Source: SAR86 cluster bacterium AG-390-O18 (lineage in GTDB: Bacteria; Pseudomonadota; Gammaproteobacteria; Magnimaribacterales; AG-339-G14). Taken from it: a stretch of DNA of 64,000 nt. The stretch covers positions 321,586 through 385,585 of the forward strand of contig QCHF01000002.1 in NCBI GenBank assembly GCA_003279605.1. Reading direction: 5' to 3'. Made by a program: the position numbers and the translations under genes. Below, in pieces: positions 1,671 through 60,426 of the stretch (positions within the stretch are counted from its first letter, which is position 1; each line of letters starts with the position of its first letter). The notes under the pieces were generated by a model. It made no database searches. It was not told where the DNA came from and was given only the letters and a program-made list of their open reading frames with translations.

Positions 1671-4376
1671 ATGGCTAAACCAGAAAGCACCGCAGATACT
1701 GACTCCGTCATTCTTATCGATGGGTCTTCTTATGTGTATCGTGCCTATCATGCTTTACCGCCCTTAACGACTTCTTCTGGACAGCCAACCGGAGCAGTCA
1801 GAGGAGTGACTACAATGGTGATGCGAATCTTAGAAGACCATCCAAATTCACCTATTGGGATGATCTTTGATGCCAAAGGCGATACTTTTCGCCACGACAT
1901 GTTCAAAGAATACAAAGCCAATCGACCGCCGATGCCAGACGATTTACGTCCGCAAATTCAACCCATTTACGACATTGTTGAGGCCTTAGGTATCAAGATT
2001 TTTGTAGTTGATAATGTCGAGGCCGATGATGTGATTGGCACGCTTGCTAAGCAAGCTGAAGAAAAGGGCATTTCGACTGTGATTTCCACTGGCGATAAAG
2101 ACTTGGCACAACTCGTAACCAAAAATATTAAATTGGTGAATACCATGACCAACGAAGTTCTCGATCAAAAAGGTGTGGAGAAAAAGTTTGGCGTAACCCC
2201 AGAACAAATCATCGATTACTTGGCACTTGTTGGGGACACCTCGGATAACATTCCAGGGGTAAATAAAGTCGGTCCCAAAACTGCGGTCAACTGGTTAAGC
2301 AAATATGGAACGGTTGAAACCATCATTGAAAAAGCTGAAGAAATTACCGGTAAGGTTGGTGAATACTTACGCGAAGGCATTGAGCAACTCAAACTTTCAC
2401 AACAATTAACGACCATCAAAAAAGATGTCGCGTTGGATTTCGGGATTGAGGACCTGGCAGTAGGAGAAACCGATCAAGCTAAATTGCACAAGCTATTTAC
2501 CGAACTGGAATTTAAGACTTTATTAAAAAGCGCCGAAACAAAAAAAACTCCAGCAACAAGCTCCAATGGCTCTGCTTCAAAAGACAATTACCGTGCCATT
2601 CTGAGTAAAAAAGATTTGGATGGTCTCATTAAGGAATTGAAAAAAGCCAAAGTCTTGGCCTTTGATACCGAAACGGATTCCTTGGATTTTACTCAAGCCA
2701 ACTTGGTCGGCTTATCAGTTGCAACAGACGAAGACAATGCATACTACATTCCGGTTGGTCATGATTACGAGGGTGCACCCAAGCAACTCGATCGAGACGA
2801 GGTTTTAAAAAAACTCAAACCAATCATTGAGAAAACTCCTTTAATTGGCCAACACTTAAAATTCGATCGTAATGTTTTAGCAAATTACGATATCCATTTG
2901 AATGCCATTGAAAATGACACCATGTTGATGTCTTACGTCTATGATCCAACTGCGACCCGTCATAATTTGGATGCCATGGCGAGTCATTATTTAAATGTCA
3001 AAACCACAACTTTTGAGGATGTTGCAGGTAAGGGCGTCAAACAACTTACTTTCAATCAGATACCTTTGGAAAAAGCGAGCGATTACGCAGCAGAAGATGC
3101 GGATATCACTTTCCGTTGCTATTCCCATTTGAAACCAGCTTTAGCAAAGACGCCTTCTTTGGAAAAAGTTTTGCATGAAATTGAATTACCTTTGGTGCCG
3201 GTGCTCTCCGATATGGAACAAGCCGGGACTTTAGTTAATGAAGAAGCATTAAAAATTCAATCCAATAATTTAGGACAACGGATCAGTGGGCTTGAAGAAC
3301 AAGCTTATCGAGAAGCAGGAAAGGAATTCAACTTGGCTTCTACCAAAGATTTAAGAGCAATTTTCTTTGATGAGATGGAATTGCCGGTCGTGAAAAAAAC
3401 TCCTGGCGGCCAACCTTCTACCGATGAGTCGGTTTTACAAGAATTAGCCAATCATTATGAATTACCTAAAATTCTCTTGGAACATCGTACTTTGGCAAAA
3501 TTGAAAAGTACTTACACCGATAGTCTGCCGCAACAAATATCGAAAAAGACAGGTCGCGTGCATACTTCCTTTCATCAAGCTGTGACTTCAACTGGGAGAT
3601 TGTCTTCTGCCGATCCCAATTTACAAAACATCCCTATCAAAACCGATGAAGGCAGACTTATCAGAACGGCTTTTGTCGCGCCCGAGGGATATCAATTGCT
3701 AGCAGTTGATTATTCGCAAATTGAACTACGCATCATGGCGCATCTTTCTGAAGATAAAGGTCTCATTACCGCATTCGAAAATGGTGAAGACATTCATTCT
3801 GTTACAGCGGCAGAGGTCTTTGCTGAACCAGGAGAGGAGGTCACTACAGAACAACGTCGCGGAGCCAAAGCAATCAACTTCGGTTTGATCTATGGCATGT
3901 CAGCTTTTGGCTTGAGTAAAGCTTTGAATATTTCAAGACCCCTAGCAGCAGACTATATCGATTCATATTTTCACAAATATCCTGGCGTTAAATTGTATAT
4001 GGAACGAACCAAGGAGCTTGCTAAAGAGAAAGGTTATGTTGAAACCTTTTTTGGCAGACGACTTTATTTACCTGGAATCCATAGCGGGCGCAGTCGAATG
4101 GCTGCAGAGAGGGCAGCAATCAATGCACCTATGCAAGGAACTGCTGCTGACATCATGAAAATTGCGATGATTGAAATTCATGAGTGGCTGGCCAAAGGCA
4201 AAGTTGATGCTCGGATGATCATGCAAGTTCACGATGAAGTGATTTTGGAGGTCAAAGATCAAGACGCTTCCAAAGTCGAACAAGAAGTTTCAAAAATCAT
4301 GCAAGATGCAGCGAAATTGAAAGTACCTTTGGAAGTTGAAAGCGGCCTAGCTTCCAATTGGGGTGAAGCCCACTAG
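1671..4376 (+). CDS. polA: DNA polymerase I
   Basis: 5'-3' exo (LIDGSSYVYRAYHA, EADDVIGT), 3'-5' exo (FDTET) and polymerase motifs (DYSQIELR, KAINFGLIYG, QVHDE). Confidence 0.99.
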   Translation: MAKPESTADTDSVILIDGSSYVYRAYHALPPLTTSSGQPTGAVRGVTTMVMRILEDHPNSPIGMIFDAKGDTFRHDMFKEYKANRPPMPDDLRPQIQPIYDIVEALGIKIFVVDNVEADDVIGTLAKQAEEKGISTVISTGDKDLAQLVTKNIKLVNTMTNEVLDQKGVEKKFGVTPEQIIDYLALVGDTSDNIPGVNKVGPKTAVNWLSKYGTVETIIEKAEEITGKVGEYLREGIEQLKLSQQLTTIKKDVALDFGIEDLAVGETDQAKLHKLFTELEFKTLLKSAETKKTPATSSNGSASKDNYRAILSKKDLDGLIKELKKAKVLAFDTETDSLDFTQANLVGLSVATDEDNAYYIPVGHDYEGAPKQLDRDEVLKKLKPIIEKTPLIGQHLKFDRNVLANYDIHLNAIENDTMLMSYVYDPTATRHNLDAMASHYLNVKTTTFEDVAGKGVKQLTFNQIPLEKASDYAAEDADITFRCYSHLKPALAKTPSLEKVLHEIELPLVPVLSDMEQAGTLVNEEALKIQSNNLGQRISGLEEQAYREAGKEFNLASTKDLRAIFFDEMELPVVKKTPGGQPSTDESVLQELANHYELPKILLEHRTLAKLKSTYTDSLPQQISKKTGRVHTSFHQAVTSTGRLSSADPNLQNIPIKTDEGRLIRTAFVAPEGYQLLAVDYSQIELRIMAHLSEDKGLITAFENGEDIHSVTAAEVFAEPGEEVTTEQRRGAKAINFGLIYGMSAFGLSKALNISRPLAADYIDSYFHKYPGVKLYMERTKELAKEKGYVETFFGRRLYLPGIHSGRSRMAAERAAINAPMQGTAADIMKIAMIEIHEWLAKGKVDARMIMQVHDEVILEVKDQDASKVEQEVSKIMQDAAKLKVPLEVESGLASNWGEAH

Positions 4377-4381
4377 TTCAA

Positions 4382-4408
4382 GAACTTTTTCAAACATCCT
4401 CAGTCTAA
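4382..4408 (+). promoter_or_regulatory. Putative sigmaE/AlgU-type promoter
   Basis: GAACTT (4382-4387), 16-nt spacer, TCTAA (4404-4408); matches the ECF sigmaE/AlgU consensus GAACTT-N16/17-TCTRA. Confidence 0.65.
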
Positions 4409-4413
4409 ATATC

Positions 4414-4492
4414 GTTCTCCTAAAAAATAAGGAAATACATAATCCTTGTGGCCCGTCAGCATCTCTCTCCCCTGAAAACTGCTGACGGGTTT
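4414..4492 (+). ncRNA. Candidate sigmaE-dependent small RNA at the polA-engB (Spot 42/ErsA) locus
   Basis: Follows the sigmaE-like promoter; 5' UUCUCCU, A-rich tract, perfect 10-bp stem cccgtcagca/tgctgacggg (4452-4461/4480-4489) with an 18-nt C/U-rich loop, then a short U run. Ends approximate. Confidence 0.6.
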
Positions 4493-5099
4493 AAACTTCT
4501 AAAAGCAGTTTAATTTTATTTAACAAAGTTTCCAAACCTATTTTTTTGGTTGCAGAAAATACAAGTGAGTCGACAATGGCTGGGTAATCAGCCATTTTTT
4601 CCGAGACAACTTTAAGAGTATTTTGGGTTTCTTTATTATTAAGTTTATCGGCTTTGGTCAAAACCAAATGAATGGGTAAATTCAACGAATTGCAAAGACT
4701 TAAAAATTCCAAATCTTTATTTTGAAAAGGGTGACGCATGTCCATGATCAAAATCAAATCGCTTAGCGCTGCTCTTTTCTCCAAATAACTCATAATCAAT
4801 CTGGCCCAAGCATTTTGATCTTGCTTGCTGGCTTTTGCGTAACCAAAACCTGGCAGATCGACTATTTTTTTCGCTTCGTCATTCTCCAAATGAAAAAAAT
4901 TTATGGATTGGGTTCTCCCTGGGGTATTGGAGGTTTTGGCTAATTTTTTTTGATTAGCCAAAGCATTAATCAAAGTAGATTTTCCGGAATTTGATCTGCC
5001 GCAAAGAGCTATTTCATTACCTGAATCATGAGGGAAAAGCTTGCTTTCCGTCGCAGCACAAGCAAAGGTTAGAGGCAAAGGTTTTGACTTATAACTCAT
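4491..5099 (-). CDS. engB: Ribosome biogenesis GTP-binding protein EngB/YihA
   Basis: G1 GRSNSGKS, SNTPGRTQSINFF, G3 DLPGFG, G4 TKADK. Confidence 0.96.
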   Translation of the reverse strand: MSYKSKPLPLTFACAATESKLFPHDSGNEIALCGRSNSGKSTLINALANQKKLAKTSNTPGRTQSINFFHLENDEAKKIVDLPGFGYAKASKQDQNAWARLIMSYLEKRAALSDLILIMDMRHPFQNKDLEFLSLCNSLNLPIHLVLTKADKLNNKETQNTLKVVSEKMADYPAIVDSLVFSATKKIGLETLLNKIKLLLEV

Positions 5100-5172
5100 T
5101 CTTCTAAAATCAGGAAAAACAATATTCTATAGTATATAATTGCCAACCACTTAGCCCACTAATAAAGAATAA

Positions 5173-8938: not shown

Positions 8939-9006
8939 GACTTCCCACTCTTTTCAGGAACTATTTAGAGGATTAAACTTAATTGAATTATTCAGGAGAG
9001 AAAAAC

Positions 9007-10059
9007 ATGGATGCGGAAAAACTCAGTCAATTAACTCAAAAAGTCATTGGTGATGCAGCAGGAGCAGTAGGTTTACTGCTGGCATACATCGGAGACCAAT
9101 CAAAAGTTTATACAACAATGGACGAACTTGGCTCTTCAACTGTAAAAGAAATTGCAGATAAAGCAGGCCTTGATGAACGATACTTAAGAGAATTTCTCTC
9201 TTCCAATGCTGCTAATGGCTATGTAACTTATGAACCCGCAGAGGATAAATTTTCTCTTTCTCCAGAGCAAGCAGCTGTCTTTGCAAAAGATGGTGAGCCT
9301 ACTTGTTTGCAGGGTTACTTCCAAGCGATAGTTGGTCAATATGCAGAGCATGAAAAAGCCGTGGAAACTTTTCAATCAGGAAAAGGTAGACCATGGGGAG
9401 AACATCATCTGTGTTGTTTCTGTGGTACCGATAGATTTTTTAGACCAGGCTATGTTGGTAACTTAGTTAGTAATTGGATTCCGTCTTTATCTGGAGTTGA
9501 AGATCAATTAAAAGCTGGTGCCAAGGTAGCAGATATCGGTTGTGGTTTAGGCTCTACGACTATCATCATGGCTCAGACTTACCCCAATTCAACAATTCAT
9601 GGATACGATTTTCATGGTCCTTCCATTGAAGAGGCTAGTGCAAGAGCCAAGGAACTTGGACTAACCAACATTGAGTTTCACGTATCGGATGCCAGAGAGA
9701 TTCCAGATAATGGATATGACTTTGCCTGCATTTTTGATGCTCTTCATGACATGGGAGATCCTGTTGGTGTTGCCAATCATATTAAAAATGTTCTTTCCGA
9801 TGATGGTACATTCATGTTGGTCGAACCCGCTGCAGCAGATAATTTAGAAGGTAACTTGAATACTTTTGGCGGTTTAGCATATGGTTTTTCAACAATAGTT
9901 TGTGTTCCTACTTCTAGAGCTCAAGATGTGGGCCTTTGCTTGGGCGCACAGGCCGGTCCAAAAAGGCTTACGGATGTTTTGAATTCTGCAGGATTTCATC
10001 ACGTTAGAGAGTCAGCTCGAACTGGAACAAATATGGTTTTCGAGGTTAAGCAAGCTTAA
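9007..10059 (+). CDS. Class I SAM-dependent methyltransferase with N-terminal winged helix (Rv2258c-like)
   Basis: ADIGCGLG SAM motif, FDALHDMGDP, N-terminal GLDERYLREFL; start placed at ATG 9007 behind AGGAG. Confidence 0.8.
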   Translation: MDAEKLSQLTQKVIGDAAGAVGLLLAYIGDQSKVYTTMDELGSSTVKEIADKAGLDERYLREFLSSNAANGYVTYEPAEDKFSLSPEQAAVFAKDGEPTCLQGYFQAIVGQYAEHEKAVETFQSGKGRPWGEHHLCCFCGTDRFFRPGYVGNLVSNWIPSLSGVEDQLKAGAKVADIGCGLGSTTIIMAQTYPNSTIHGYDFHGPSIEEASARAKELGLTNIEFHVSDAREIPDNGYDFACIFDALHDMGDPVGVANHIKNVLSDDGTFMLVEPAAADNLEGNLNTFGGLAYGFSTIVCVPTSRAQDVGLCLGAQAGPKRLTDVLNSAGFHHVRESARTGTNMVFEVKQA

Positions 10060-11381
10060 TGCCAAACGAAAACAATTTTCTTGAAAAAGCTCTGCTTGTT
10101 CAAGTTGAAACTACAAAAGTCAGGCGTATTTTAAATTTTGAAAACTCTTTTGAAGAGTTTAAAGATTTAGCCCGTTCAGCAGGAGCTAACGTATTAGGTG
10201 AAATCAAAGGAAAGCAGGAACTTGCATCTCCCAGATATTTCATTCAAAAAGGGAAACTGGAAGAAATCAAGCAAGAAGTGCACAAAAACAAAATTAGTTT
10301 GGTTATTTTTAATCATGCTTTATCGCCATCACAAGAAAGAAATATCGAGCGGTATCTGAAAGCAAGGGTTTTGGATAGAACTGGATTGATTTTAGATATT
10401 TTTGCTAGACGTGCTTTTAGTCACATTGGAAAACTTCAAGTTGAGCTTGCTCAATTATCCCACTTATCTACCAGACTGATTAGAGGCTGGAGTCATTTAG
10501 AAAGACAAAAAGGAGGAATTGGCTTGCGAGGACCAGGAGAAACGCAACTGGAAACAGACAGAAGATTAATCGGTAATCGGATCAAAGCTCTTAAGAAGAA
10601 ACTTACAAAAAGTCACAATCAAAAATCTTTAAATAGATATGCAAGAAAAAAAGGCAAAAACAAAATCGTAGCATTAGTTGGCTATACGAATGCAGGTAAA
10701 ACAACTCTTTTTAATGCTTTGACGGGCGGCGTAGAATACAAAGCCGATCAGCTTTTTGCAACTCTAGATTCAGTAACTAGGAAAAACCTAAGTCCAGGTA
10801 GTAGAGCAATACTTTTTACCGATACTGTAGGTTTTATTTCAGAAATTCCTACAGAATTGATCGAATCCTTTAAAACCACACTGGACGATCTTAGATCTGC
10901 TGATTTGTTGATTCACTTAGTAGATGTGAATGACCCAGAAAAAGAGCTAAAACAAAAAGAGGTTATAAAAATTTTGAAGGATTTAAACTTAAAAGATATT
11001 CCTCAACTTTTAGTTAATAACAAGATAGATAATCTTTCTGCCGCGAAACAACAAGAATTGGAGTTTCAAAATCCCAAGGATCTTTATGTTTCTGCAGAAA
11101 AAAATATTGGGATCGATTCCTTGAAAGAAAAAATAATAGAACAAACCAGTAATGGGCTCTTCAAAGGCTGGGTTTCAGTTGATCATAGGGCTTCTGCGAT
11201 ACGCGCGAAACTCTATGAAGAAGGATGCGTTAGAGATGAGATTGGTAAAGATACAGAATGGCATCTAAAGTTAAATGTCGGCAATGATTTTCTTACAGAG
11301 TCTATTAATGCATCGGAATTAAAAATCTTATTCAATGAAGAACAAGAAAGCTTTGAAATTGGTGAGCCAGGTAGAACCTGA
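10059..11381 (+). CDS. hflX: GTPase HflX
   Basis: LDIFARRA, GIGLRGPGETQLETDRR, G1 GYTNAGKT, DQLFATLD, DTVGFI, NKID. Confidence 0.97.
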   Translation: MPNENNFLEKALLVQVETTKVRRILNFENSFEEFKDLARSAGANVLGEIKGKQELASPRYFIQKGKLEEIKQEVHKNKISLVIFNHALSPSQERNIERYLKARVLDRTGLILDIFARRAFSHIGKLQVELAQLSHLSTRLIRGWSHLERQKGGIGLRGPGETQLETDRRLIGNRIKALKKKLTKSHNQKSLNRYARKKGKNKIVALVGYTNAGKTTLFNALTGGVEYKADQLFATLDSVTRKNLSPGSRAILFTDTVGFISEIPTELIESFKTTLDDLRSADLLIHLVDVNDPEKELKQKEVIKILKDLNLKDIPQLLVNNKIDNLSAAKQQELEFQNPKDLYVSAEKNIGIDSLKEKIIEQTSNGLFKGWVSVDHRASAIRAKLYEEGCVRDEIGKDTEWHLKLNVGNDFLTESINASELKILFNEEQESFEIGEPGRT

Positions 11382-11436
11382 ATCTGCGACCTTTTGCTCC
11401 TGAGGCAAATGTTCTGATCCGCTCAACTACTGGCTC
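11360..11436 (-). tRNA. Atypical tRNA or tRNA-like gene: anticodon CAG on a short-variable-arm, tRNA-Arg(CCG)-like body
   Basis: GAGCCAG-TA-GTTG AGCGGATCA GAAC-A-TTTGC CTCAGGA GCAAA-AGGTC-GCAGA TTCAGGT TCTAC-CTGGCTC-A-CCA. Perfect 7-bp acceptor and 5-bp anticodon stems, encoded CCA; deviations in D and T arms. Function uncertain. Confidence 0.8.
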
Positions 11437-20826: not shown

Positions 20827-22800
20827 ATGACAGATCAACAAAACCTAGCCAATGCTATAAGAGCTCTATCTATGGATGCAGTTCAGAGAGCAGGATGCGG
20901 ACATCCTGGTATGCCCATGGGAATGGCAGATATCGCACAAGTTTTGTGGACCAAACATCTTAAATATAACCCTTCAAATCCTGATTGGTTTGATAGAGAT
21001 AGGTTTGTTTTATCCAATGGACATGGTTCCATGCTGCTTTATTCGCTTCTTCATTTGACAGGTTATGATCTTTCTATGGATGAATTGAAAAATTTCCGTC
21101 AACTGGGTTCAAAAACACCCGGACATCCGGAATGTGACGTGACCCCAGGAGTAGAAACAACGACGGGTCCCCTTGGACAAGGCATAGCAAACGCAGTTGG
21201 AATGGCAATGGCAGAAAAAATTCTTGCAAAGAGATTTAATAAAAAAAATTGTCCAATAATTGATCATTACACTTACGTTTTTTGTGGTGACGGTTGTTTG
21301 ATGGAAGGTATTTCTCATGAGGTTTGTTCTTTAGCTGGCACACATAAATTGAATAAATTAATTGTCTTATACGATGACAATAAAATTAGCATTGATGGCA
21401 AAGTTGAAGGTTGGTTTACAGACAATACGCCAGAGAGATTCAAAAGTTATGGTTGGAACGTTATAGCAGATGTCGATGGGCATGATTTTCAAAGTATTGA
21501 TAAAGCTTTGGAAGATGCAAAATCATCTAATCTTCCAACTCTAATTTGTTGTAAAACAGAAATTGGGAAAGGATCTCCCAATAAATCAGGTTCAGCAGAT
21601 GCTCATGGCGCAGCTCTTGGCGAGGAAGAAATCAAACTCACTAGAGAAAACATCCAATGGCAGTATGAGCCTTTTGAAATCCCTGATGAAATTTACAAGG
21701 CTTGGGATCACAAAAAACAAGGACAAGAAAGTGAAGAAAAGTGGCAAGAGGTTCTTGCCGATTTTGAAAAAAACCATCCTGAAGATTCTAAAGAGCTGCA
21801 TAGATTAATCACCGGAAGCTTGCCTAGTAATTTTGAATCTATCATCGAGAATCTAATCAATAATTTTTCTGAAGATGAAAATTCTTATGCTAGTAGAAAG
21901 TGTTCTGGTATGTGTTTGGATGCCATAGGCCCAATAATGCCAGAGTTGATAGGTGGATCAGCAGATCTTTCTCCTTCAAATAATACTGAATGGAAAGGAA
22001 CCTCTCATCTTGCAGAAGATGGTTCAGGTAATTACTTAAATTATGGCGTTCGAGAATTTGGTATGTCGGCAATAATGAATGGCATGATCTTACATGGCGG
22101 CATTAGACCTTATGCAGGAACTTTTCTCACTTTTCTAGATTACGCTAGAAATGCCGTAAGGATGTCTGCCTTAATGAAATTGCCTGTGATTTATGTTTAT
22201 ACTCATGACTCCATTGGGGTCGGTGAAGATGGTCCAACTCATCAACCGGTGGAACATATCTCAATGCTAAGAATTACACCTGGTATTTACACTTGGCGAC
22301 CTTGCGATGGGGTAGAAACTGCTTGCGCATGGAAATTTGCACTGAAGTCAAAAGCTGCACCTTCAGCATTGATATTATCCAGACAATCATTGGATGCTCA
22401 GAAAAGAGAAACAAACGACTCAATTTTTCTAGGCGGATACGAACTTGCTTCAGACCAAAATCCCAAAATAACATTGGTTGCTTCAGGCTCAGAAGTGAGC
22501 TTAGCCATGAAAGTTCGAGATCAGCTTAATGAGCAAAAAATTTCATCAAGAGTTGTCTCAATGCCATGTACTGAAATATTTGATGAACAATCATCGGAAT
22601 ATCAAAGAGAAACCTTAGGCGACTTGCCAAAAATTTTCATAGAAGCAGGGCAAAGCGATTTTTGGAAGAAGTATTGTGAAGGAGATGATCAAGTAGTCGG
22701 TATCGACAAATTTGGCGAATCAGCTCCAATAGATGATTTGATGAACCACTTTGGTTTTACAGTTGAAAATATAATCAAACAAATTAACAAAACAATTTAA
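20827..22800 (+). CDS. tkt: Transketolase
   Basis: [48 protein letters not shown]. Confidence 0.98.
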
Positions 22801-29297: not shown

Positions 29298-30629
29298 ATG
29301 AAGAAAGTCTTTATCCAAACCCATGGCTGTCAGATGAATGAATACGATTCAGCCAAAATGCTTGAGTTACTAGGCGAGAAAAGTAATTTTCAAACTACAG
29401 AAAATGAGTCAGAAGCAGATTTATTAGTCCTAAATACTTGTTCAATCAGAGAAAAAGCTCAAGAAAGGGTATTTCACCAGGTTGGTCGCTGGAAAGCTTT
29501 GAAGGAAAATAATCCCAACTTAAAGATTGCTGTTGGTGGCTGTGTTGCAAGCCAAGAAGGTGAAGCTATTTCAAAAAGAGCTCCTGCGGTAGACATTGTA
29601 TTTGGTCCGCAAACTCTGCATAAACTTCCAGATTTATATGAAGAATCTTCACAAGATGGAAAAAGAAAGCTTGATATTACCTTTCCAAAAATTGAAAAGT
29701 TCGATCATTTTCCTGAACCTAAAGCTGAAGGACCTTCCGCCTTTGTTTCTGTCATGGAAGGATGCAATAAATATTGTTCTTTTTGTGTGGTCCCACATAC
29801 CAGAGGGCATGAGGTCAGCAGACCGTTTGATGATATTTTGCAAGAAGTAACATCATTAGCGAATCAAGGAGTAAGAGAGATAAATTTTTTAGGACAAAAT
29901 GTAAATAATTTCAAAGGCGAAAAAGATGGAGAAAAATCTTCTTTAGCAGAATTGATTAGAGATGCTGCTAATATCGATAATATTGATCGTCTAAGATTTA
30001 CTACCAGCCATCCTTTTGAATTCAAAGATGATCTTGTAGATCTTTACCTAGATGTACCCGAGCTAGTCAGCCATGTTCATTTACCGGTTCAAAGTGGATC
30101 AGATAGGATCTTGAAGTTAATGAGAAGAAGGTATACCCGAAAGAGTTATTTGGATTTAGTAAATCGCATAAGAGCAAATCGTCCCGACATTAGTTTTTCT
30201 TCAGATTTTATAGTAGGTTTTCCGGGTGAGACTGAAGAAGACTTTCAAGATACTTTGGACGTTATCGATAGCGTTAAGTTCGATGAATCTTTTAGCTTCA
30301 TATACAGCCCAAGACCTAATACGCCAGCAGCCAAAATGGAAGACGATGTCAGCCTTGATGAAAAAAAAGAAAGATTGAATATTCTTCAAAATAAGTTAAA
30401 TAACTATTCCAGTCAGATCGCTCGCAAAATGGTTGGTACTATCGAAAAATGTTTAGTCACAGACATTTCAAAGAGAAATCCAGGAGAATTCCAAGCCAGA
30501 ACGGAAAATAATCGTGTTGTTAATTTTTCTTCAGCTAAAAACTTCATTGGAAGTTTCGTTGATTTAGAAATTGTTGAGGCCAAACCAAATTCCCTGAGAG
30601 GCAAATTTACCGGAGGTACAATTAATTAA
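29298..30629 (+). CDS. miaB: tRNA-2-methylthio-N6-dimethylallyladenosine synthase
   Basis: [20 protein letters not shown], radical [23 protein letters not shown] domain. Confidence 0.97.
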
Positions 30630-32061: not shown

Positions 32062-32964
32062 ATGAAAGAAGAACCTCCAAGTATAAGTGCTCAACCTGAA
32101 AAGTTGGGCTTAATACAACGCATTAAAAGCTTCTTTAGGGATTTCCACATCAGAATTTCCTTCAAACCATCCAATCAAAAAGAGTTAACCTCTGTTTTAA
32201 GGGACGCAGAGGAAAACAACCTTATTGATAAAGGAGTTTTGGATATGATGGAAGAAACCATTGATTTTTCGTCCACTCCAGTAAAAGAAGTGATGGTGCC
32301 AAAAACCCAAGTTATATCCATCAAGGAGACTGAAGGTTTGGCTGAATTCTTACCTAGAATTTTAGAATCAGCACACTCTAGATTTCCAGTTTTTGATGAG
32401 CCTCAAGAAAAAATAAAAGGCATTCTGCTAGCAAAAGATTTATTGAAATTTGGTCCCGGTCTATTGGGACAAGATGAGAATTTAAGTTTTGATTTGTCTC
32501 AGATTTTAAGACCAATTAATTTCATTCCTGAAAGTAAAAAAATCAACATACTCTTGGAGGAATTCAAAACGAATAGAAGCCACATGGCTGCAGTTGTTGA
32601 TGAGTTTGGTGAAATCAGTGGGATTGTTACTATTGAAGATGTTCTAGAAGAAATTGTTGGAGAAATTATAGACGAAACCGATATCAGCGAATCTGAAGAT
32701 ATTATTCAATTAACTGAAAATGAGTTTAATGTTTCAGCCTTGACTGAAATTGAGACTTTTAATGATCGCTTTTCTTCGAATTTTGAAGCAACAGATTTTG
32801 ATACGATTGGCGGAATTGTCTTAAATTCCTTTGGAAAAATTCCTTTAGTGAACGATTCAATCGAAATACAAAATTTTCACTTTACGGTTCTAGCCGCAAA
32901 TAAAAGACAAATTTTAAAGCTGAGAATAAAGGTTTTAGAAACTATTTCTGAAGAGCTTAACTAG
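32062..32964 (+). CDS. corC: CBS-domain Mg/Co efflux protein CorC (YbeX)
   Basis: SAHSRFPV, HMAAVVDEFG, VTIEDVLEEIVGEI, DTIGG; after ybeY. Confidence 0.9.
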   Translation: MKEEPPSISAQPEKLGLIQRIKSFFRDFHIRISFKPSNQKELTSVLRDAEENNLIDKGVLDMMEETIDFSSTPVKEVMVPKTQVISIKETEGLAEFLPRILESAHSRFPVFDEPQEKIKGILLAKDLLKFGPGLLGQDENLSFDLSQILRPINFIPESKKINILLEEFKTNRSHMAAVVDEFGEISGIVTIEDVLEEIVGEIIDETDISESEDIIQLTENEFNVSALTEIETFNDRFSSNFEATDFDTIGGIVLNSFGKIPLVNDSIEIQNFHFTVLAANKRQILKLRIKVLETISEELN

Positions 32965-33859
32965 AATTTTCCTGAAGAATTTTCTTTAGCTCATTTCCAA
33001 GTAATTCAACATCTTGGACACCTCCATAATTAGGCCTTATGACTATAGCTATTTCTCTATGAGGACCAGATTCATTGAGATGTAAATTTTTTAGATCTGG
33101 ATTACCTGCCATCAACTGACTAATGGCCATCTTCGGCACCAAAGTAGTACCCATGCCGCTTTTTACAAATTGTACTAGGGTATTTAAAGAAGAAGCTTTG
33201 AAAGAAATATTGCTTGCTTGCTTCGTCATTTTGCATGCGGACAGTATATGATCTTTAAGACAATGTCCCTCTTCAAGTAACAGTAATTCAGATCGATCAA
33301 GTTCATTAGCTTTTATTTCTTTATCCTTGGAGCGAGCGTCATTTTTCTTAGTAATCCAAAAAAAGTCTTCTGCCCAAAATTTTATGGGTATCAAACCTTG
33401 AAGCTTGAAGGGCAGAGCAAGAATGGCCATATCCAAATCGCCATTTTTGACTTTATTAATGAGATCGTTTGACTGACCTTCAGAGATATTTAAATTCAAT
33501 TTAGGAAATTTAATACTCAAAGACTTTATAGCATGAGGCATTAAGAAGGGGCTTATGGTTGGGATGACTCCAAGAGATATTGGGTGCGAAAGTGGTTGTG
33601 AATTGTTTTCAGAAATTTTTTGAATATCTTCCAGTTGTATCTTAATACTCTTGTATTTCTTTAAAATTTCTTCACCCAATTTAGTAACAATTACTTTTTT
33701 ATTGTTTCTTTCAAAAATTTCAAAACCCAATTGTTTTTCCATTTCGGATATAGCATTACTCAAAGTGGAAGCGGAGACAAAACACTTATCTGCAGCATTT
33801 TTAAAGTGCATCTCTTTTTCAACCGCCAAGGCATAATTTATTTGCTTGATACTAACCAT
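32957..33859 (-). CDS. oxyR: LysR-family peroxide sensor OxyR
   Basis: LysR HTH; LLLEEGHCLKDHILSAC with both redox cysteines; divergent from katG. Confidence 0.88.
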   Translation of the reverse strand: MVSIKQINYALAVEKEMHFKNAADKCFVSASTLSNAISEMEKQLGFEIFERNNKKVIVTKLGEEILKKYKSIKIQLEDIQKISENNSQPLSHPISLGVIPTISPFLMPHAIKSLSIKFPKLNLNISEGQSNDLINKVKNGDLDMAILALPFKLQGLIPIKFWAEDFFWITKKNDARSKDKEIKANELDRSELLLLEEGHCLKDHILSACKMTKQASNISFKASSLNTLVQFVKSGMGTTLVPKMAISQLMAGNPDLKNLHLNESGPHREIAIVIRPNYGGVQDVELLGNELKKILQENSS

Positions 33860-33965: not shown

Positions 33966-36112
<2,147 letters not shown>

Positions 36113-55414: not shown

Positions 55415-57241
55415 ATGAATAATTTTTCAAGAGAAAGTTTAAATACAGGGAAAGAATATTCAAGGGCTTTATTTTTTTTATCACCCTTTATTTTTCTTTT
55501 TTCTATTTCACTTTTTCAAGTTTTGAATTTAACTTTGTTACAAGGAGATAAGTATCAAACCATAGCTGAATCAAATAGGATATATCAAAAATCCATTAAT
55601 CCTGTAAGAGGCTTCATATACGATAGAAAGGGGACTTTATTAGCTGAAAATATCGTCCAAAGAGATCTTTATGTTACTCCTGCATACATTAAAGATTCTT
55701 CAAAAACAATTCTAACGTTATCTAATTTATTAAATATGCCTTATGAACTTCTGGAAAAAAATTTCTCAAGAGGTGTAAAAAAAGCAAAGAAGTTTGACTC
55801 TTTTCCTTTGGTAAAAGCCCTTAACGAAGAACAGATTGCTAAAGCTAAAGTAAATTTAGATTCAATTTCAGGTATCGAAGTCAAAGCTACTCTCAAAAGG
55901 TATGTTCTCCATGAGGAAACTTTGGCTCATATATTGGGTTACGTTGGGGATATTTCGTTCGATGATATAAGCAGAAACAAGCTATTAGCAGAATTTCAGA
56001 ATACTCAAATTGGAAAAACAGGCATTGAAAAAGACTATGACTTAATTTTAAGAGGCAAACCCGGTATTCAAACCCAAGAAAGAGATGTTAAAGGCAAATT
56101 AGTAAGGGTTCTAGATACTCTAGGAGCAGAAGACGGAAAAGATATTTACTTATCAATTGATCAGGAATTACAGGAGCATCTTTTTAAGCTTTTTGAAAAC
56201 AGAAGAGGAGCATTAGTAGCCTTAGAGCCAAAAACCGGCTTGGTTAGAGCCTTGATTAGTTCTCCCTCATTCAATCCAAATATATTGAATTCAATTTTGG
56301 ATACTGATGAGGTAGAAAGTTTATTTTCAAATAAAGAAAGCCCAATTTTTAATAGAGCTGTTTCCGGTCAATACCCTCCTGCATCAACTTTGAAGCCTTT
56401 TGTAGGTCTTGCTGCAATAGAAAATGAAATAATCAGCTGGGATAAAAAAATTAAAGACGATGGTAAATTTTATGTCGAGGGAGATCCAAGACCTTATCGA
56501 GGCTGGAAAGAGAATGGACATGGAAGAGTAGACATGAGGAAAGCGATTGCAGAATCTTCTGACGTATATTTTTATACCATCGCTTATGACTTAACTTTAT
56601 CAGGAATAAGACCAATGCTTGACAGTTTTGGTTTTGGTAAAAAAACAGGCTTAACTAACTTTGAAGCCAATGGTCTCCTTCCTGATAAAAAATGGAAATT
56701 AGGTTACAAAGGAGATTTTTGGTTCAAAGGTGACACAATAAATTTAGGAATAGGACAAGGTTATATTTTAGCCACACCCCTCCAATTAGCTATGGCTTAC
56801 TCTGGTCTTGCGAATAGGGGAGTAATTTATGAACCTCAATTTATACAACCGAAAGACGAAACGTCTTTTGAGCCAAAAAAAGCAGCTGAAATTCAACTTT
56901 CTGATAAGAAAGCTTGGGAAAAAATGGAACAAGCTCTAGTCGACGTGATTTCTGCAAGAAATGGAACAGCTCATAAAGTTTTTGATGCCAATTCAGCTGT
57001 TATTGCAGGAAAAACCGGCACTGCACAAATTAAAAGTATTCTTCCGGGTAAAGAATACGATGCAATTCGTAAAAATCCTGCGTTACGTGATCATGCCCTT
57101 TTTGTAGGCTATGGGCCAGTAGAAGACCCAAAACTAGTCGTAGCGGTCGTCATAGAAAATGGTGAGTCAGGAAGTGAAGTTGCTGCTCCAATTGTTAAAT
57201 CTGCAATAAATTTTTATGCAGGAGGATTTAATGCAGAATAA
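55415..57241 (+). CDS. mrdA: Penicillin-binding protein 2
   Basis: RG.IYDR.G, YPPASTLK (SxxK), SSD, KTGTAQ. Confidence 0.94.
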   Translation: MNNFSRESLNTGKEYSRALFFLSPFIFLFSISLFQVLNLTLLQGDKYQTIAESNRIYQKSINPVRGFIYDRKGTLLAENIVQRDLYVTPAYIKDSSKTILTLSNLLNMPYELLEKNFSRGVKKAKKFDSFPLVKALNEEQIAKAKVNLDSISGIEVKATLKRYVLHEETLAHILGYVGDISFDDISRNKLLAEFQNTQIGKTGIEKDYDLILRGKPGIQTQERDVKGKLVRVLDTLGAEDGKDIYLSIDQELQEHLFKLFENRRGALVALEPKTGLVRALISSPSFNPNILNSILDTDEVESLFSNKESPIFNRAVSGQYPPASTLKPFVGLAAIENEIISWDKKIKDDGKFYVEGDPRPYRGWKENGHGRVDMRKAIAESSDVYFYTIAYDLTLSGIRPMLDSFGFGKKTGLTNFEANGLLPDKKWKLGYKGDFWFKGDTINLGIGQGYILATPLQLAMAYSGLANRGVIYEPQFIQPKDETSFEPKKAAEIQLSDKKAWEKMEQALVDVISARNGTAHKVFDANSAVIAGKTGTAQIKSILPGKEYDAIRKNPALRDHALFVGYGPVEDPKLVVAVVIENGESGSEVAAPIVKSAINFYAGGFNAE

Positions 57242-58331
57242 ACCTTTAAGTTTTTCAGTAGACATTAAATTGAATAAAAGGAGAAATTTAGCAAATTTTG
57301 ATTATTCTATTGTTCTTACCGTTCTTCTTTTAGGTCTTTTTGGGCTAGCAATGATTTATAGTGCTACTGGGTCTTATGCTCTGGTTCTAAGGCAGGCAAT
57401 TTATTTTTTTCTTGGCGTTATCCTGATGATTATTGCAGCAATGTCTAATTTCAGAAAAATGGAGCCTATTTATTTGAATGCAGTCTGGATAGGTTTCTTT
57501 TTATTAGTTTTAGTTTTAGTTTTACCAAATTCTGGAACCACGAATCGATGGATAAATCTAGGTTTCATTGGGTTTCAACCTTCTGAGCTAATGAGGTTTT
57601 TATTACCTATTTCCGCAGCAGCATATTTAACACGCAATCCACAGATAAAATTATCTGACTGGATAATTGTTCTAATCACTACATTGGTAGCTTTTATTTT
57701 AGTTTTCTTACAGCCAGATTTTGGTACCTCAGCGATAGTTTTGCTCTCTGGGATAATGCCAATTATTTTATCCGGCTTACCTTGGAGATATATTATTTAT
57801 AGTTTTTTAGGAGGTATTGGAACTCTTCCTTTTTTATGGATGAGCTTGATGGATTATCAAAAGGAAAGGATTTATACCTTTATTAGCCCCGAAACTGATG
57901 CCTTAGGTTCTGGGTGGAATATTGCCCAATCAAAGATTGCCATAGGTTCCGGGCAATTTTTTGGAAAGGGCTACATGGAAGGAAGTCAGAGCCAGTTAGA
58001 TTTCATCCCCGAGAGCCATACTGACTTCATTTTTGCAGTAATTGTGGAGGAGTTTGGATTCTTAGGCGCTCTTGGTCTTTTTCTTCTTTATGCTTTTTTA
58101 ATTCATCGACTCTTATATGTTGCTAAAAGAAGTAATTCTAAATTTGCAAAATTAGTCTCAGCGACACTTTCAATTATTTTAGCTGCCTACATAACATTAA
58201 ATATTTCAATGGTAGTTGGTATCTTTCCAGTAGTAGGTATGCCTTTACCATTCATCAGTCAAGGCGGAACAGCACTGGTGGTTAATATGATTACTATAGG
58301 TATAATTTTATCTTTAAGGAGAACGACTTGA
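57231..58331 (+). CDS. rodA: Rod shape-determining protein RodA
   Basis: RWINLG...QPSE, QPDFGT, YQ..RI, QS.IAIGSG, PESHTDFIF, G.PLPFIS.GG; start ATG 57231 behind GGAGG. Confidence 0.94.
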   Translation: MQNKPLSFSVDIKLNKRRNLANFDYSIVLTVLLLGLFGLAMIYSATGSYALVLRQAIYFFLGVILMIIAAMSNFRKMEPIYLNAVWIGFFLLVLVLVLPNSGTTNRWINLGFIGFQPSELMRFLLPISAAAYLTRNPQIKLSDWIIVLITTLVAFILVFLQPDFGTSAIVLLSGIMPIILSGLPWRYIIYSFLGGIGTLPFLWMSLMDYQKERIYTFISPETDALGSGWNIAQSKIAIGSGQFFGKGYMEGSQSQLDFIPESHTDFIFAVIVEEFGFLGALGLFLLYAFLIHRLLYVAKRSNSKFAKLVSATLSIILAAYITLNISMVVGIFPVVGMPLPFISQGGTALVVNMITIGIILSLRRTT

Positions 58332-59278
58332 AAAAAATAAGTTTGCTTTTGCTATTAGCCTTTTTTGTGCCTCTTATTCATTTAGATTATTCAAAAAGCA
58401 CAGAAACTTTATCTTTCATTGATGAAATGGTTATCAAACATAAATTTGAAAAATCTTATTTGGTAGAAATTTTCAAAAGTGCTGAAAAAAGAGAAAAAAT
58501 AATTAATTCCATGAATAGGCCCGCGGAAAAGAAATTTTCTTGGGCTCAATACAAATCTAGATTAATTTCGCCTATGAGAATTAATAACGGCGTAAGTTTT
58601 CTAGAAAGATTTTTACAAGAGTTTGAAAAGGCAGAACAAGAATTTGGAGTTCCTAAAGAGATTATTGCAGCAATTATAGGTATTGAATCTAGTTATGGTT
58701 CTATTACAGGCAGAGAAAGAGTAATAGATTCGTTATCAACCCTTGCCTTTGATTATCCAAGGCGAAGCAAATTTTTTACTAAACAATTAGAACATTTTCT
58801 CTTACTTACTAGAGAAGAAGAACTTGATCCTCTGATCATGAAAGGCTCATATGCTGGAGCTATGGGTTATGGTCAATTTATGCCAGACTCTTATCGATCT
58901 TATGCCATTGATTTTGATCAAGATGGGATTAGAAATATCGTAACAAATCCCATTGATGCAATTGGTAGCGTTGCAAATTATTTAAGAAGACATGGCTGGG
59001 AAAGAAATGCCACTATAGCAGAGGCTCTCACAAGAAATGATGTTAATTCAAATTTTAAGACATCTCTTTCTCTAAAAGAACCAGATGCCTTGCAACTGGT
59101 ATCTAAAATCAATTTACCCAATAAAAAATACTTACAAATAAACTTTGAAGACAAAGAATTTTGGTTGGGGCATAAAAATTTATATGTTTTAGCACGTTAT
59201 AATCCAAGCTCTTTTTATGTAATGGCAGTATTTCTTTTGAGTCAGGAAATTGACTATGCCTATCGAGTAAAAATATGA
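58328..59278 (+). CDS. mltB: Lytic murein transglycosylase B
   Basis: IIGIESSYG, LSTLAFDYPRR, GSYAGAMGYGQFMP.SY, RYNPS..Y; TTG start. Confidence 0.92.
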   Translation: MKKISLLLLLAFFVPLIHLDYSKSTETLSFIDEMVIKHKFEKSYLVEIFKSAEKREKIINSMNRPAEKKFSWAQYKSRLISPMRINNGVSFLERFLQEFEKAEQEFGVPKEIIAAIIGIESSYGSITGRERVIDSLSTLAFDYPRRSKFFTKQLEHFLLLTREEELDPLIMKGSYAGAMGYGQFMPDSYRSYAIDFDQDGIRNIVTNPIDAIGSVANYLRRHGWERNATIAEALTRNDVNSNFKTSLSLKEPDALQLVSKINLPNKKYLQINFEDKEFWLGHKNLYVLARYNPSSFYVMAVFLLSQEIDYAYRVKI

Positions 59279-60426
59279 AAAAAGTTCTATTAATAATTTA
59301 TTTCTTATCTACTGTAGCTTTCTCACAAACGTTAATTCCAAAATTACCGCAAATTACCGCTTCAAGCTTTTTACTTATTGACACTGAGACAAATAAAATA
59401 ATTGCTCAACAAAATCCAGAAGCTTCTACAGGGTTAGCGAGCATCACGAAAATCATGACGAGTTACATAGTAGCGGACTATTTAAAAAAAGGATTTTTAA
59501 ACATTAAAGACTCCACAACAGTAAGTGAAAAATGTTGGCGCATGGAAGGCTCAAGGATGTTCATCCAAGAAGGTAAAAAGGTTTTGATAGAAGATTTAAT
59601 GCGCGGCATGATTATCCAATCTGGAAATGATGCAGCCTGTGCCTTAGCTGAACACATTGCAGGAACCCAAGAAGATTTTGCGAGCCTTATGAATGACTAT
59701 GCTCAAAGAATGGAGTTAAAAAATACGAATTTTACCAATCCAACTGGCTTACCAAATGTTAATCACTATTCAACGGCTGAAGATATAGCAAAATTAAGTA
59801 TATTTTTAATCAACGATTTCCCTGACGAATATTCAATCTATAGAGAGAAAGAATTTACCTACAACGACATAAGGCAATTAAATAGAAATAGCTTGCTTTG
59901 GCAAGATGACTCAATAGATGGTATTAAAACTGGCCATACAAGGGCGTCAGGATATTGCTTGGTGGCCTCATCTAAAAGATCAGACATGAGGCTAATTTCG
60001 ATAGTTCTTAATAGTGCTTCTGAAAAATCAAGACTTCAAGACACCAGAAGATTACTGGACTATGGTTTCAAGTACTATCAAACTAAAAAAATAATAGCTA
60101 AATATCAACCAATATCTATCGTTGATATCTGGGGCGGAATGGAAGATAAATTGGAACTTGGCCCTAAAAAAGATATCTTCATAACATTAACTAAACCTAC
60201 TTTTGATAGGCTTACTATTGAGGCATCAAAAAATTTGGGTGTAAAAGCACCTGTGAGGAAGGATTCAGTTATAGACAGATTAGATATCAAAGTTGATGGC
60301 GAAACTATTCAATCTGTTGATTTGGTTGCTGTAAATAATGTGCAAAGAAAAGGAATTATCATAGCGACTTTAGAGTCTTTGATGTTCTATGTTTACAGTT
60401 TCTTCATGCAAGATGAAATAAATTAA
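59275..60426 (+). CDS. dacA: D-alanyl-D-alanine carboxypeptidase (PBP5/6)
   Basis: ASITKIM (SxxK), SGNDA, GIKTGHT. Confidence 0.92.
   Translation: MKKVLLIIYFLSTVAFSQTLIPKLPQITASSFLLIDTETNKIIAQQNPEASTGLASITKIMTSYIVADYLKKGFLNIKDSTTVSEKCWRMEGSRMFIQEGKKVLIEDLMRGMIIQSGNDAACALAEHIAGTQEDFASLMNDYAQRMELKNTNFTNPTGLPNVNHYSTAEDIAKLSIFLINDFPDEYSIYREKEFTYNDIRQLNRNSLLWQDDSIDGIKTGHTRASGYCLVASSKRSDMRLISIVLNSASEKSRLQDTRRLLDYGFKYYQTKKIIAKYQPISIVDIWGGMEDKLELGPKKDIFITLTKPTFDRLTIEASKNLGVKAPVRKDSVIDRLDIKVDGETIQSVDLVAVNNVQRKGIIIATLESLMFYVYSFFMQDEIN

Follow-up and report, generated by a model that had tools for sequence, protein, structure and literature searches.

A probable sigmaE-dependent small RNA at the polA-engB locus of SAR86, positionally equivalent to ErsA and Spot 42

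The gap between polA and engB in the genome of a SAR86 bacterium probably holds a new sigmaE-dependent small RNA (sRNA), which by its position would be the equivalent of ErsA of Pseudomonas and of Spot 42 of E. coli. We consider it likely that this gap gives rise to an independently transcribed RNA, and we lean, with somewhat less assurance, towards the full model of a trans-acting sRNA of about 78 to 80 nt, driven by sigmaE and made from the plus strand between about position 4414 and about position 4492. Its transcription, its exact ends, its dependence on sigmaE in vivo, its repressive action in trans and its targets are what we infer from the DNA sequence and its conservation. SAR86, which ranks with the most abundant bacteria of the surface ocean, is known almost wholly through its genomes, and little has been learned of its regulation. 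If confirmed, this RNA would be the first envelope-stress sRNA described for the SAR86 lineage and would offer a simple transcript by which to recognize envelope stress in marine metatranscriptomes, and it would add a data point for the polA-engB slot as an old, widely conserved regulatory-RNA address whose sequence and regulator change.

Organization of the polA-engB gap

The window, that is, the whole stretch of 64 kb that was analysed, has a low GC content (about 36%) and is very compact. Gaps of at least 30 bp between open reading frames (ORFs) of at least 110 amino acids total only about 2.2 kb of the 64 kb, and some of these gaps contain smaller genes, which agrees with the earlier description of a genome stripped of intergenic DNA. 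The gap between polA and engB (4377-4490) is 114 bp long. All the features that the first-pass annotation had listed there were found where it had put them, correct to the base: the UUCUCCU motif, the A-rich tract, the AAGGA/UCCUU hairpin, the 10-bp stem and the 18-nt loop are all present, and the AAGGA/UCCUU hairpin becomes one of 7 bp on folding. The genes and the elements of the unit are the following.

1671-4376, plus strand: polA, an ORF of 901 amino acids, with Pfam DNA_pol_A domains in relatives; upstream of the sRNA unit and on the same strand
4380-4390, plus strand: -35 region AAGAACTTTTT, with the core GAACTT at 4382-4387; GAACTTTTT is invariant in all relatives
4391-4401, plus strand: variable part of the promoter spacer, 11 nt, largely rewritten in the relatives L003, L009 and L013, of constant length
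4402-4409, plus strand: -10 region AGTCTAAA, with the core TCTAA at 4404-4408; invariant in all relatives
4414-4493, plus strand: predicted sRNA of about 77 to 80 nt, its putative start at G4414 (plus or minus 2 nt), 6 nt past the -10 region, and its putative end at the UUU after stem-loop 2
4414-4426, plus strand: single-stranded 5' end GUUCUCCUAAAAA, an anti-Shine-Dalgarno-like candidate seed, unpaired in the minimum free energy and centroid structures
4427-4449, plus strand: stem-loop 1, 7 bp with a 9-nt loop, the stem being 4427-4433 with 4443-4449 (the AAGGA/UCCUU pairing lengthened by folding)
4450-4491, plus strand: stem-loop 2, with a core of 10 bp and up to 12 bp counting G-U pairs
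4462-4479, plus strand: 18-nt CU-rich loop UCUCUCUCCCCUGAAAAC, the second candidate seed, in stem-loop 2
4491-5099, minus strand: engB (yihA), convergent with polA and the sRNA, its stop codon (4491-4493) overlapping the U-tail of the sRNA

The two core elements of the promoter, GAACTT (4382-4387) and TCTAA (4404-4408), are separated by a spacer of 16 nt, and only 5 nt lie between the stop codon of polA and the -35 element. The promoter motif is not significant by itself, at least one match being obtained in 28 of 100 shuffles of the window. A relaxed form of the motif gave two more matches in the window (22489-22516 and 30255-30281), both within genes of the opposite strand, and the count of such matches elsewhere in the window equalled the chance expectation. 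A promoter scan found no sigma70-like promoter in the polA-engB gap.

The stretch 4414-4493 was predicted to fold with a free energy of -27.3 kcal/mol (z = -6.65), none of 200 shuffles being as stable, into a free 5' end of 13 nt followed by two hairpins. The 5' end carries UUCUCCU (4415-4421), after which comes an A tract (4422-4427). Stem-loop 2 has a perfect stem of 10 bp, made by CCCGUCAGCA (4452-4461) and UGCUGACGGG (4480-4489), and UUU (4490-4492) follows this stem directly. Stem-loop 2 is probably the terminator of both the sRNA and polA. It fails the simple rule for intrinsic terminators (a GC-rich stem, a short loop and a U-rich tract with at least five U in eight nucleotides) because its loop is of 18 nt and only three U come after it, and the terminator scan called no terminator there. 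Given these weak terminator features, the 3' end of the sRNA may lie elsewhere, or transcription may read through into engB antisense. Read on the minus strand, stem-loop 1 is followed by U6 and could serve as a terminator of engB.

Downstream of engB the window carries the genes for cytochrome c4 and dsbA, an order that matches the far side of engB in Pseudomonas (PA5489-PA5493). Neither rpoE nor hfq is present in the 64 kb of the window, and hfq is also missing from its usual place upstream of hflX. In many Gammaproteobacteria miaA-hfq precedes hflX; here hflX (10059-11381) is preceded by a gene for a winged-helix-domain methyltransferase, not by miaA-hfq. A tRNA gene on the minus strand (11363-11436; Rfam, 51.9 bits) overlaps the final 19 nt of the plus-strand hflX ORF.

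Conservation of the unit in relatives

An EngB-based scan of species-representative genomes gave 14 SAR86 genomes with EngB proteins 78-97% identical, and about 20 metagenome contigs were added by protein searches and contig look-ups; throughout this set the unit hardly varied. Percentages of invariant sites were computed over the window and 13 species-level relatives. The EngB relatives form two sister clades about 80% identical, after which identity drops from at least 77% to at most 48% among the matches listed, the lists of the best 120 matches being filled with near-identical proteins. Since no EngB matches are listed between these two values, the diversity sampled corresponds to roughly one genus, and the sRNA was sampled and found in this one genus-level group only, in its two EngB clades.

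The predicted RNA body was invariant at 84% of its sites, and third codon positions were invariant at 27% in polA and 19% in engB, over the window and the 13 relatives. The divergent gap between engB and the cytochrome c4 gene (5100-5172, 73 bp), which was used as a control, was 68% invariant across relatives. The intergenic DNA of this genome is therefore conserved in general, and the RNA body lies above this control. The same gap holds an invariant TTCTATAGTATATAATT block with -10-like TATAAT sequences and probably contains overlapping promoters for both genes.

Conservation of the promoter in the polA-engB gaps of relatives had been proposed earlier as a check on the sRNA. Both hexamers proved to be fixed (100% invariant over the window and the 13 relatives) while the 16-nt spacer between them varied, 44% of its sites being invariant. 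Conservation begins at about 4380-4381: C, T or A is found at position 4379, and A or C at position 4380 in L180 and L181. Three kinds of change upstream of the unit left this boundary in place. In L003 an unrelated divergent gene replaces polA, in the L013 clade 33 to 45 variable nucleotides lie between polA and the promoter, and in L178 and L183 there is an insertion with a duplicated polA tail; in every one of these contexts conservation still begins at the -35 element, where it resumes at (A/C)AGAACTTTTT. The resumption of conservation at the -35 element in three upstream contexts points to a promoter with its own transcript rather than to a 3' UTR of polA.

The rearranged loci have features of their own. 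In L003 (contig CACEOL010000009.1, a SAR86 single-cell genome) the divergent ORF (3607-3900, minus strand) has its start codon about 27 nt from the -35 element, and the sRNA unit and engB are unchanged; the replacement of polA is a genuine rearrangement or else an artefact of chimeric assembly. The long-read metagenome contigs L178 (2110-2600) and L183 (2110-2520) have an insertion of about 300-390 bp after a polA end. In L178 it includes an ORF of 90 amino acids that has no Pfam hit. The sRNA promoter, which is intact, comes after a duplicated fragment of the 3' end of polA. The polA gene of L183 is, in addition, split into pieces by the gene calls.

Within the RNA body, the 5' end was invariant except for the length of the A run and one U-to-C change in L195. 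The stem of stem-loop 1 was invariant or improved in relatives (U-G to U-A in L010), and it was kept in the L013 clade, where the loop is rewritten from AUACAUA to AUUUACA. The first-pass annotation had held that a loop that was not conserved in relatives would speak against an sRNA; the 18-nt loop of stem-loop 2 was kept at 15 of its 18 positions over two clades with about 79-80% identity between their EngB proteins, which is unusual for the loop of a terminator. Stem-loop 2 shows a single compensatory change, A-U becoming G-C in the L013 clade, as well as a change of C-G to U-G in L193 and L195, and 99.2% of its cells in the alignment are paired. The outermost G-U pair is broken in L010, and the other substitutions in both stems keep the pairing. 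Covariation of the stems, which had been suggested as a further check, was minimal: the pairing is kept, but there is a single compensatory event and the statistics are weak, most measures failing to exceed the shuffle controls. Because there is only one such event, the case rests on conservation and not on covariation.

These patterns, which lie far outside what chance would give, support a discrete unit, made of the promoter and about 80 nt downstream of it, that is under purifying selection. A near-invariant non-coding unit of 114 bp in a very compact genome is likely to be functionally important.

The sigmaE system of SAR86

The sigmaE motif FYTWLYRI was back-translated with an AT bias and used to scan metagenome contigs, which retrieved low-GC marine contigs encoding RpoE of the ECF02 type. 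A protein search started from one of these contigs led to a family that includes P0299, named by NCBI 'sigma-70 family RNA polymerase sigma factor [SAR86 cluster bacterium]', and a further member of the RpoE family was found on the single-cell genome contig CACLKO010000019.1. The gene context is glk, rpoE, rseA, a gene for an htrA-type protease, lepA, lepB, rnc, era and recO, and on the low-GC marine contigs a protein with an RseA_N domain is encoded after RpoE. Except that rseB and rseC are missing, the gene order is the one classical for Gammaproteobacteria. In the loci L161-L175 and L201-L210 the operon is reduced: the HtrA/MucD-type protease gene and lepA-lepB-rnc-era-recO come directly after rpoE-rseA, and no homologue of rseB or rseC was called in between.

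The presence of rpoE in the genome had been named earlier as something to be confirmed; rpoE-rseA-htrA-lepA was found in several SAR86 subclades, in assemblies other than that of the window. The search did not place rpoE in the genome or genus of the window: P0333, P0299, P0275, P0283 and P0290 fall in other assemblies or samples. By tetranucleotide similarity, the L062 and L122-type rpoE loci were within the range of same-genus controls, which is not decisive.

In six rpoE subclades the short gap before rpoE carries GAACTTTTT-N11-RGTCTAC, which occurs a single time in each 20-kb locus; the hexamers of these promoters do not change, and the spacers differ. The -35 stretch AGAACTTTTT of the sRNA is identical to the -35 region of the SAR86 rpoE promoters. 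The sRNA promoter, AAGAACTTTTT-N11-AGTCTAAA, and the SAR86 rpoE promoters have AGAACTTTTT and GTCTA in common, at identical spacing. This composite, common to the sRNA and the SAR86 rpoE promoters, is the strongest argument that the unit would be read by sigmaE. The sequence described earlier as a consensus ECF promoter (GAACTT-N16-TCTAA) thus has invariant hexamers and shares its composite sequence with the SAR86 rpoE promoters, which supports its assignment to the sigmaE (ECF02) type.

At the rpoE loci L161-L175, L196, L198, L201-L210, L062 and L122 the -10 sequence GTCTAC lies 13-27 nt from the ATG of rpoE, depending on the subclade. The leader of the SAR86 rpoE mRNA would be very short, and most of the leaders have no obvious Shine-Dalgarno sequence. 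L114 and L151 are low-GC contigs with a tetranucleotide usage near that of the window, and they encode a second, different ECF-type sigma factor of about 180 amino acids; in L114 an AACTT-N16-TCAAA-like motif is located 33 nt upstream of the gene for this factor. No report pairing SAR86 with rpoE was found in the literature searched.

Known small RNAs, proposed action and other readings

None of 4227 Rfam families rose above noise in the polA-engB gap, whether at the gathering score or at E<=10 in the stretch 4300-4600, or in L013, L003 and L010. The Spot_42 covariance model (RF00021) gave no match in the window, in the 301-nt search (E<=10) or in L013, L003 and L010, while as a positive control it scored E. 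coli spf at 122.8 bits. The failure of the covariance models where the E. coli control worked indicates that the SAR86 RNA is not a member of Spot_42 or of any Rfam family. The first-pass annotation had called it an ErsA-like RNA at the Spot 42/ErsA locus and had proposed the Rfam search; the position and the promoter class stand, and membership in the Spot_42 or another Rfam family does not. Alignments to the Rfam families FasX, CRISPR-DR and sroD were far below the gathering scores and were rejected as noise. A covariance model of the SAR86 RNA (R1) had a single match in the window (110 bits), with no second copy there, and it matched none of 96 further loci, among them E. coli spf and the rpoE loci of SAR86. 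The sequence of the 18-nt loop was absent from the viral contigs searched.

Comparison of the SAR86 unit with Spot 42 showed an identical order and orientation of the genes in E. coli and in the window, polA and the sRNA being on the plus strand and engB (yihA) on the minus strand. Spot 42 is a trans-acting translational repressor, and the same action is proposed for the SAR86 RNA. The two differ in length (about 109 nt for Spot 42 and about 80 nt for the SAR86 RNA) and in promoter. Spot 42 has a sigma70 promoter repressed by cAMP-CRP and governs carbon metabolism, not envelope stress, whereas the SAR86 gap has no sequence recognized as a sigma70 promoter and carries the conserved hexamers GAACTT and TCTAA.

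ErsA, which is about 130 nt long, resembles the SAR86 RNA both in its polA-engB position and in its sigmaE/AlgU-type promoter, the latter at the level of motif and conservation in SAR86. In P. aeruginosa ersA lies in the polA-engB gap (PMC8575079), and for its transcription it needs AlgU/sigma22, an ECF sigma factor that is the sigmaE of Pseudomonas (PMC8395346). ErsA acts with Hfq and was first regarded as an orthologue of Spot 42 (PMC8575079, PMC8395346); it is described as having three stem-loops, with an unstructured, U-rich domain that contains the seed lying between SL1 and SL2 (PMC8575079). The SAR86 RNA is predicted to differ in having two stem-loops, a length of about 80 nt and single-stranded parts that are CU-rich or A-rich, and whereas ErsA works with Hfq, the tail of the SAR86 RNA has only three U.

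RybB, MicA and MicL of Enterobacteria and VrrA and MicV of Vibrio are the repressing side of the sigmaE response: they reduce the production of envelope proteins. The SAR86 RNA is like them in its promoter of the GAACTT-N16-TCNAA type and in its length of about 80 nt, and like RybB in carrying its candidate seed right at the 5' end, with a hairpin and then a probable terminator hairpin after it. These RNAs differ from it in lying at other loci, in being Hfq-dependent and in having long U-tails and known targets, and no Rfam match links the SAR86 RNA to them. The Gram-positive sRNAs RsaE/RoxS and FasX, which have C-rich or UCCC motifs, pair with Shine-Dalgarno sequences through CU-rich loop segments, often without Hfq. 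FasX gave the best of the weak Rfam alignments, to its CU-rich loop, at 22 bits against a gathering score of 100; the resemblance to these RNAs is compositional only, as they belong to a different phylum and have no sigmaE promoter. Dupont et al. (2012) described a different non-coding RNA of SAR86, in a carbon-assimilation island.

It is possible, if on the doubtful side, that the SAR86 RNA, ErsA and Spot 42 descend from the same ancestral gene. The polA-engB slot would then have been occupied without a break since the early Gammaproteobacteria, and sigmaE control, found in Pseudomonas and in SAR86, would be the older state. The body and the seed would have turned over completely, and the gene would have survived an extreme streamlining of the genome, possibly with two anti-Shine-Dalgarno mimics and without a canonical Hfq-binding tail. 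Common descent, if true, would provide a third anchor for tracing how an sRNA changes its sequence, its regulator and its regulon at a constant address.

According to the proposed mechanism, envelope stress would lead to the degradation of RseA and free sigmaE (RpoE), which would then transcribe the sRNA from AAGAACTTTTT-N11-AGTCTAAA. At its 5' end the RNA would leave the CU-rich stretch GUUCUCCUAAAAA free; a short hairpin would come next, and then a strong one, whose 18-nt loop would display a second CU-rich segment and which would also stop the transcription of both the sRNA and polA. One or both of these CU-rich, anti-Shine-Dalgarno-like segments would pair in trans with purine-rich ribosome-binding regions. 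The mRNAs of envelope or outer-membrane proteins would be the expected targets and reduced translation the outcome; the sigmaE sRNAs RybB, MicA, VrrA and ErsA act by such pairing and lowered translation. TonB-dependent receptors of the outer membrane abound in SAR86 (Dupont et al., PMC3358033), and a candidate role of the sRNA, the limitation of outer-membrane protein synthesis under sigmaE, would fit this biology. The near invariance of both the unpaired 5' end and the loop points to sequence-specific partners and argues against a plain terminator or a purely cis-antisense role.

The latter role would be that of a sigmaE-driven antisense RNA that pairs with the complementary 3' UTR of engB or interferes with the transcription of engB or polA, and it would link envelope stress to a GTPase of ribosome biogenesis. 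The tail of the RNA overlaps with the stop codon of engB, and if stem-loop 1 and U6 on the minus strand terminate engB, the engB 3' UTR would be complementary to about 65 nt of the sRNA. The unit also stays with engB where polA has been replaced (L003), and the weak U-tail could permit read-through into engB antisense. Complementarity of this kind, however, holds whatever the sequence, which leaves the near-invariant 5' end and 18-nt loop unexplained, and Spot 42 and ErsA, in the same position, act in trans (PMC8395346). We therefore regard a role in cis as rather improbable as an account of the unit, but a local antisense effect on engB has to be taken seriously, as an alternative or as a second function.

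That the gap holds no RNA gene at all, and consists of back-to-back terminators (stem-loop 2 and UUU for polA, the antisense of stem-loop 1 and U6 for engB) with a functionless promoter motif, would agree with the occurrence of the motif by chance in 28% of shuffles, with hairpins located where terminators are expected, and with the general conservation of intergenic DNA in this genome. Terminators conserve structure rather than loops, however, and in this gap invariance extends to the 18-nt loop and the unpaired 5' segment. Both hexamers keep their sequence and their distance while the spacer varies, a 15-nt composite is that of the SAR86 rpoE promoters, and conservation begins at the -35 element whatever lies upstream. 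These results make a pair of terminators improbable to a marked degree.

Derivation of the RNA from the 3' UTR of polA, by read-through and processing, is very improbable. The unit is on the same strand as polA, its -35 element comes 5 nt after the polA stop codon, and no terminator separates the two. The unit is nevertheless intact in L003, where polA is missing and the upstream gene is divergent, it is parted from polA by variable inserts in the L013 clade, L178 and L183, and its promoter composite is conserved.

A small protein encoded by the unit, as SpfP is by Spot 42, can be practically dismissed: the E. coli spf record now carries spfP, and AAGGA lies 12-15 nt upstream of the TTG and GTG starts of the two candidate ORFs (9 codons, from TTG 4446 to TGA 4473-4475, and 21 codons from GTG 4449), but the unit has no ATG, and both ORFs were rejected because natural variants are mostly non-synonymous in both frames, the TTG start is destroyed in L010, and the 21-codon frame stops only at 4512-4514, inside engB, beyond the hairpin and the tail.

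For the sigmaE-driven, trans-acting sRNA, possible targets were scanned among 58 genes of the window. The first-pass annotation had proposed, as a speculative target, that the loop pairs with the ribosome-binding site TTCAGGAGAGA (8991-9001) of the methyltransferase gene. This site lies upstream of ATG 9006. The pairing was predicted at -14.8 kcal/mol, and 70% of shuffled loops paired as well or better in the window, so this target was rejected as being at chance level, as were the loop matches among the 58 genes in general. The methyltransferase ORF, listed from TTG 8983, more likely begins at ATG 9006, with GGAGAG 7 nt upstream.

The best match of the 5' seed was to the Shine-Dalgarno sequence of a gene for an mltB-like lytic transglycosylase (58328-59278), at -13.5 kcal/mol, a value reached in 5% of shuffles; this predicted pairing is a lead and not a finding. 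The ribosome-binding region of the mltB-like gene (58290-58330 of the window) reads AAGGAGAAC and matches in full the complement of the 8 nt with which the predicted sRNA begins, GUUCUCCU. The gene is part of a PBP2-rodA-mltB-dacA cluster (55415-60426).

Elsewhere in the window, the 2-kb bin of a catalase-peroxidase gene (33966-36098) has a GC content of 43.8%, compared with about 34% in the flanking bins. A divergent gene for a LysR-type regulator (32957-33859) adjoins it, and the rise in GC could reflect either acquisition or a strong codon bias.
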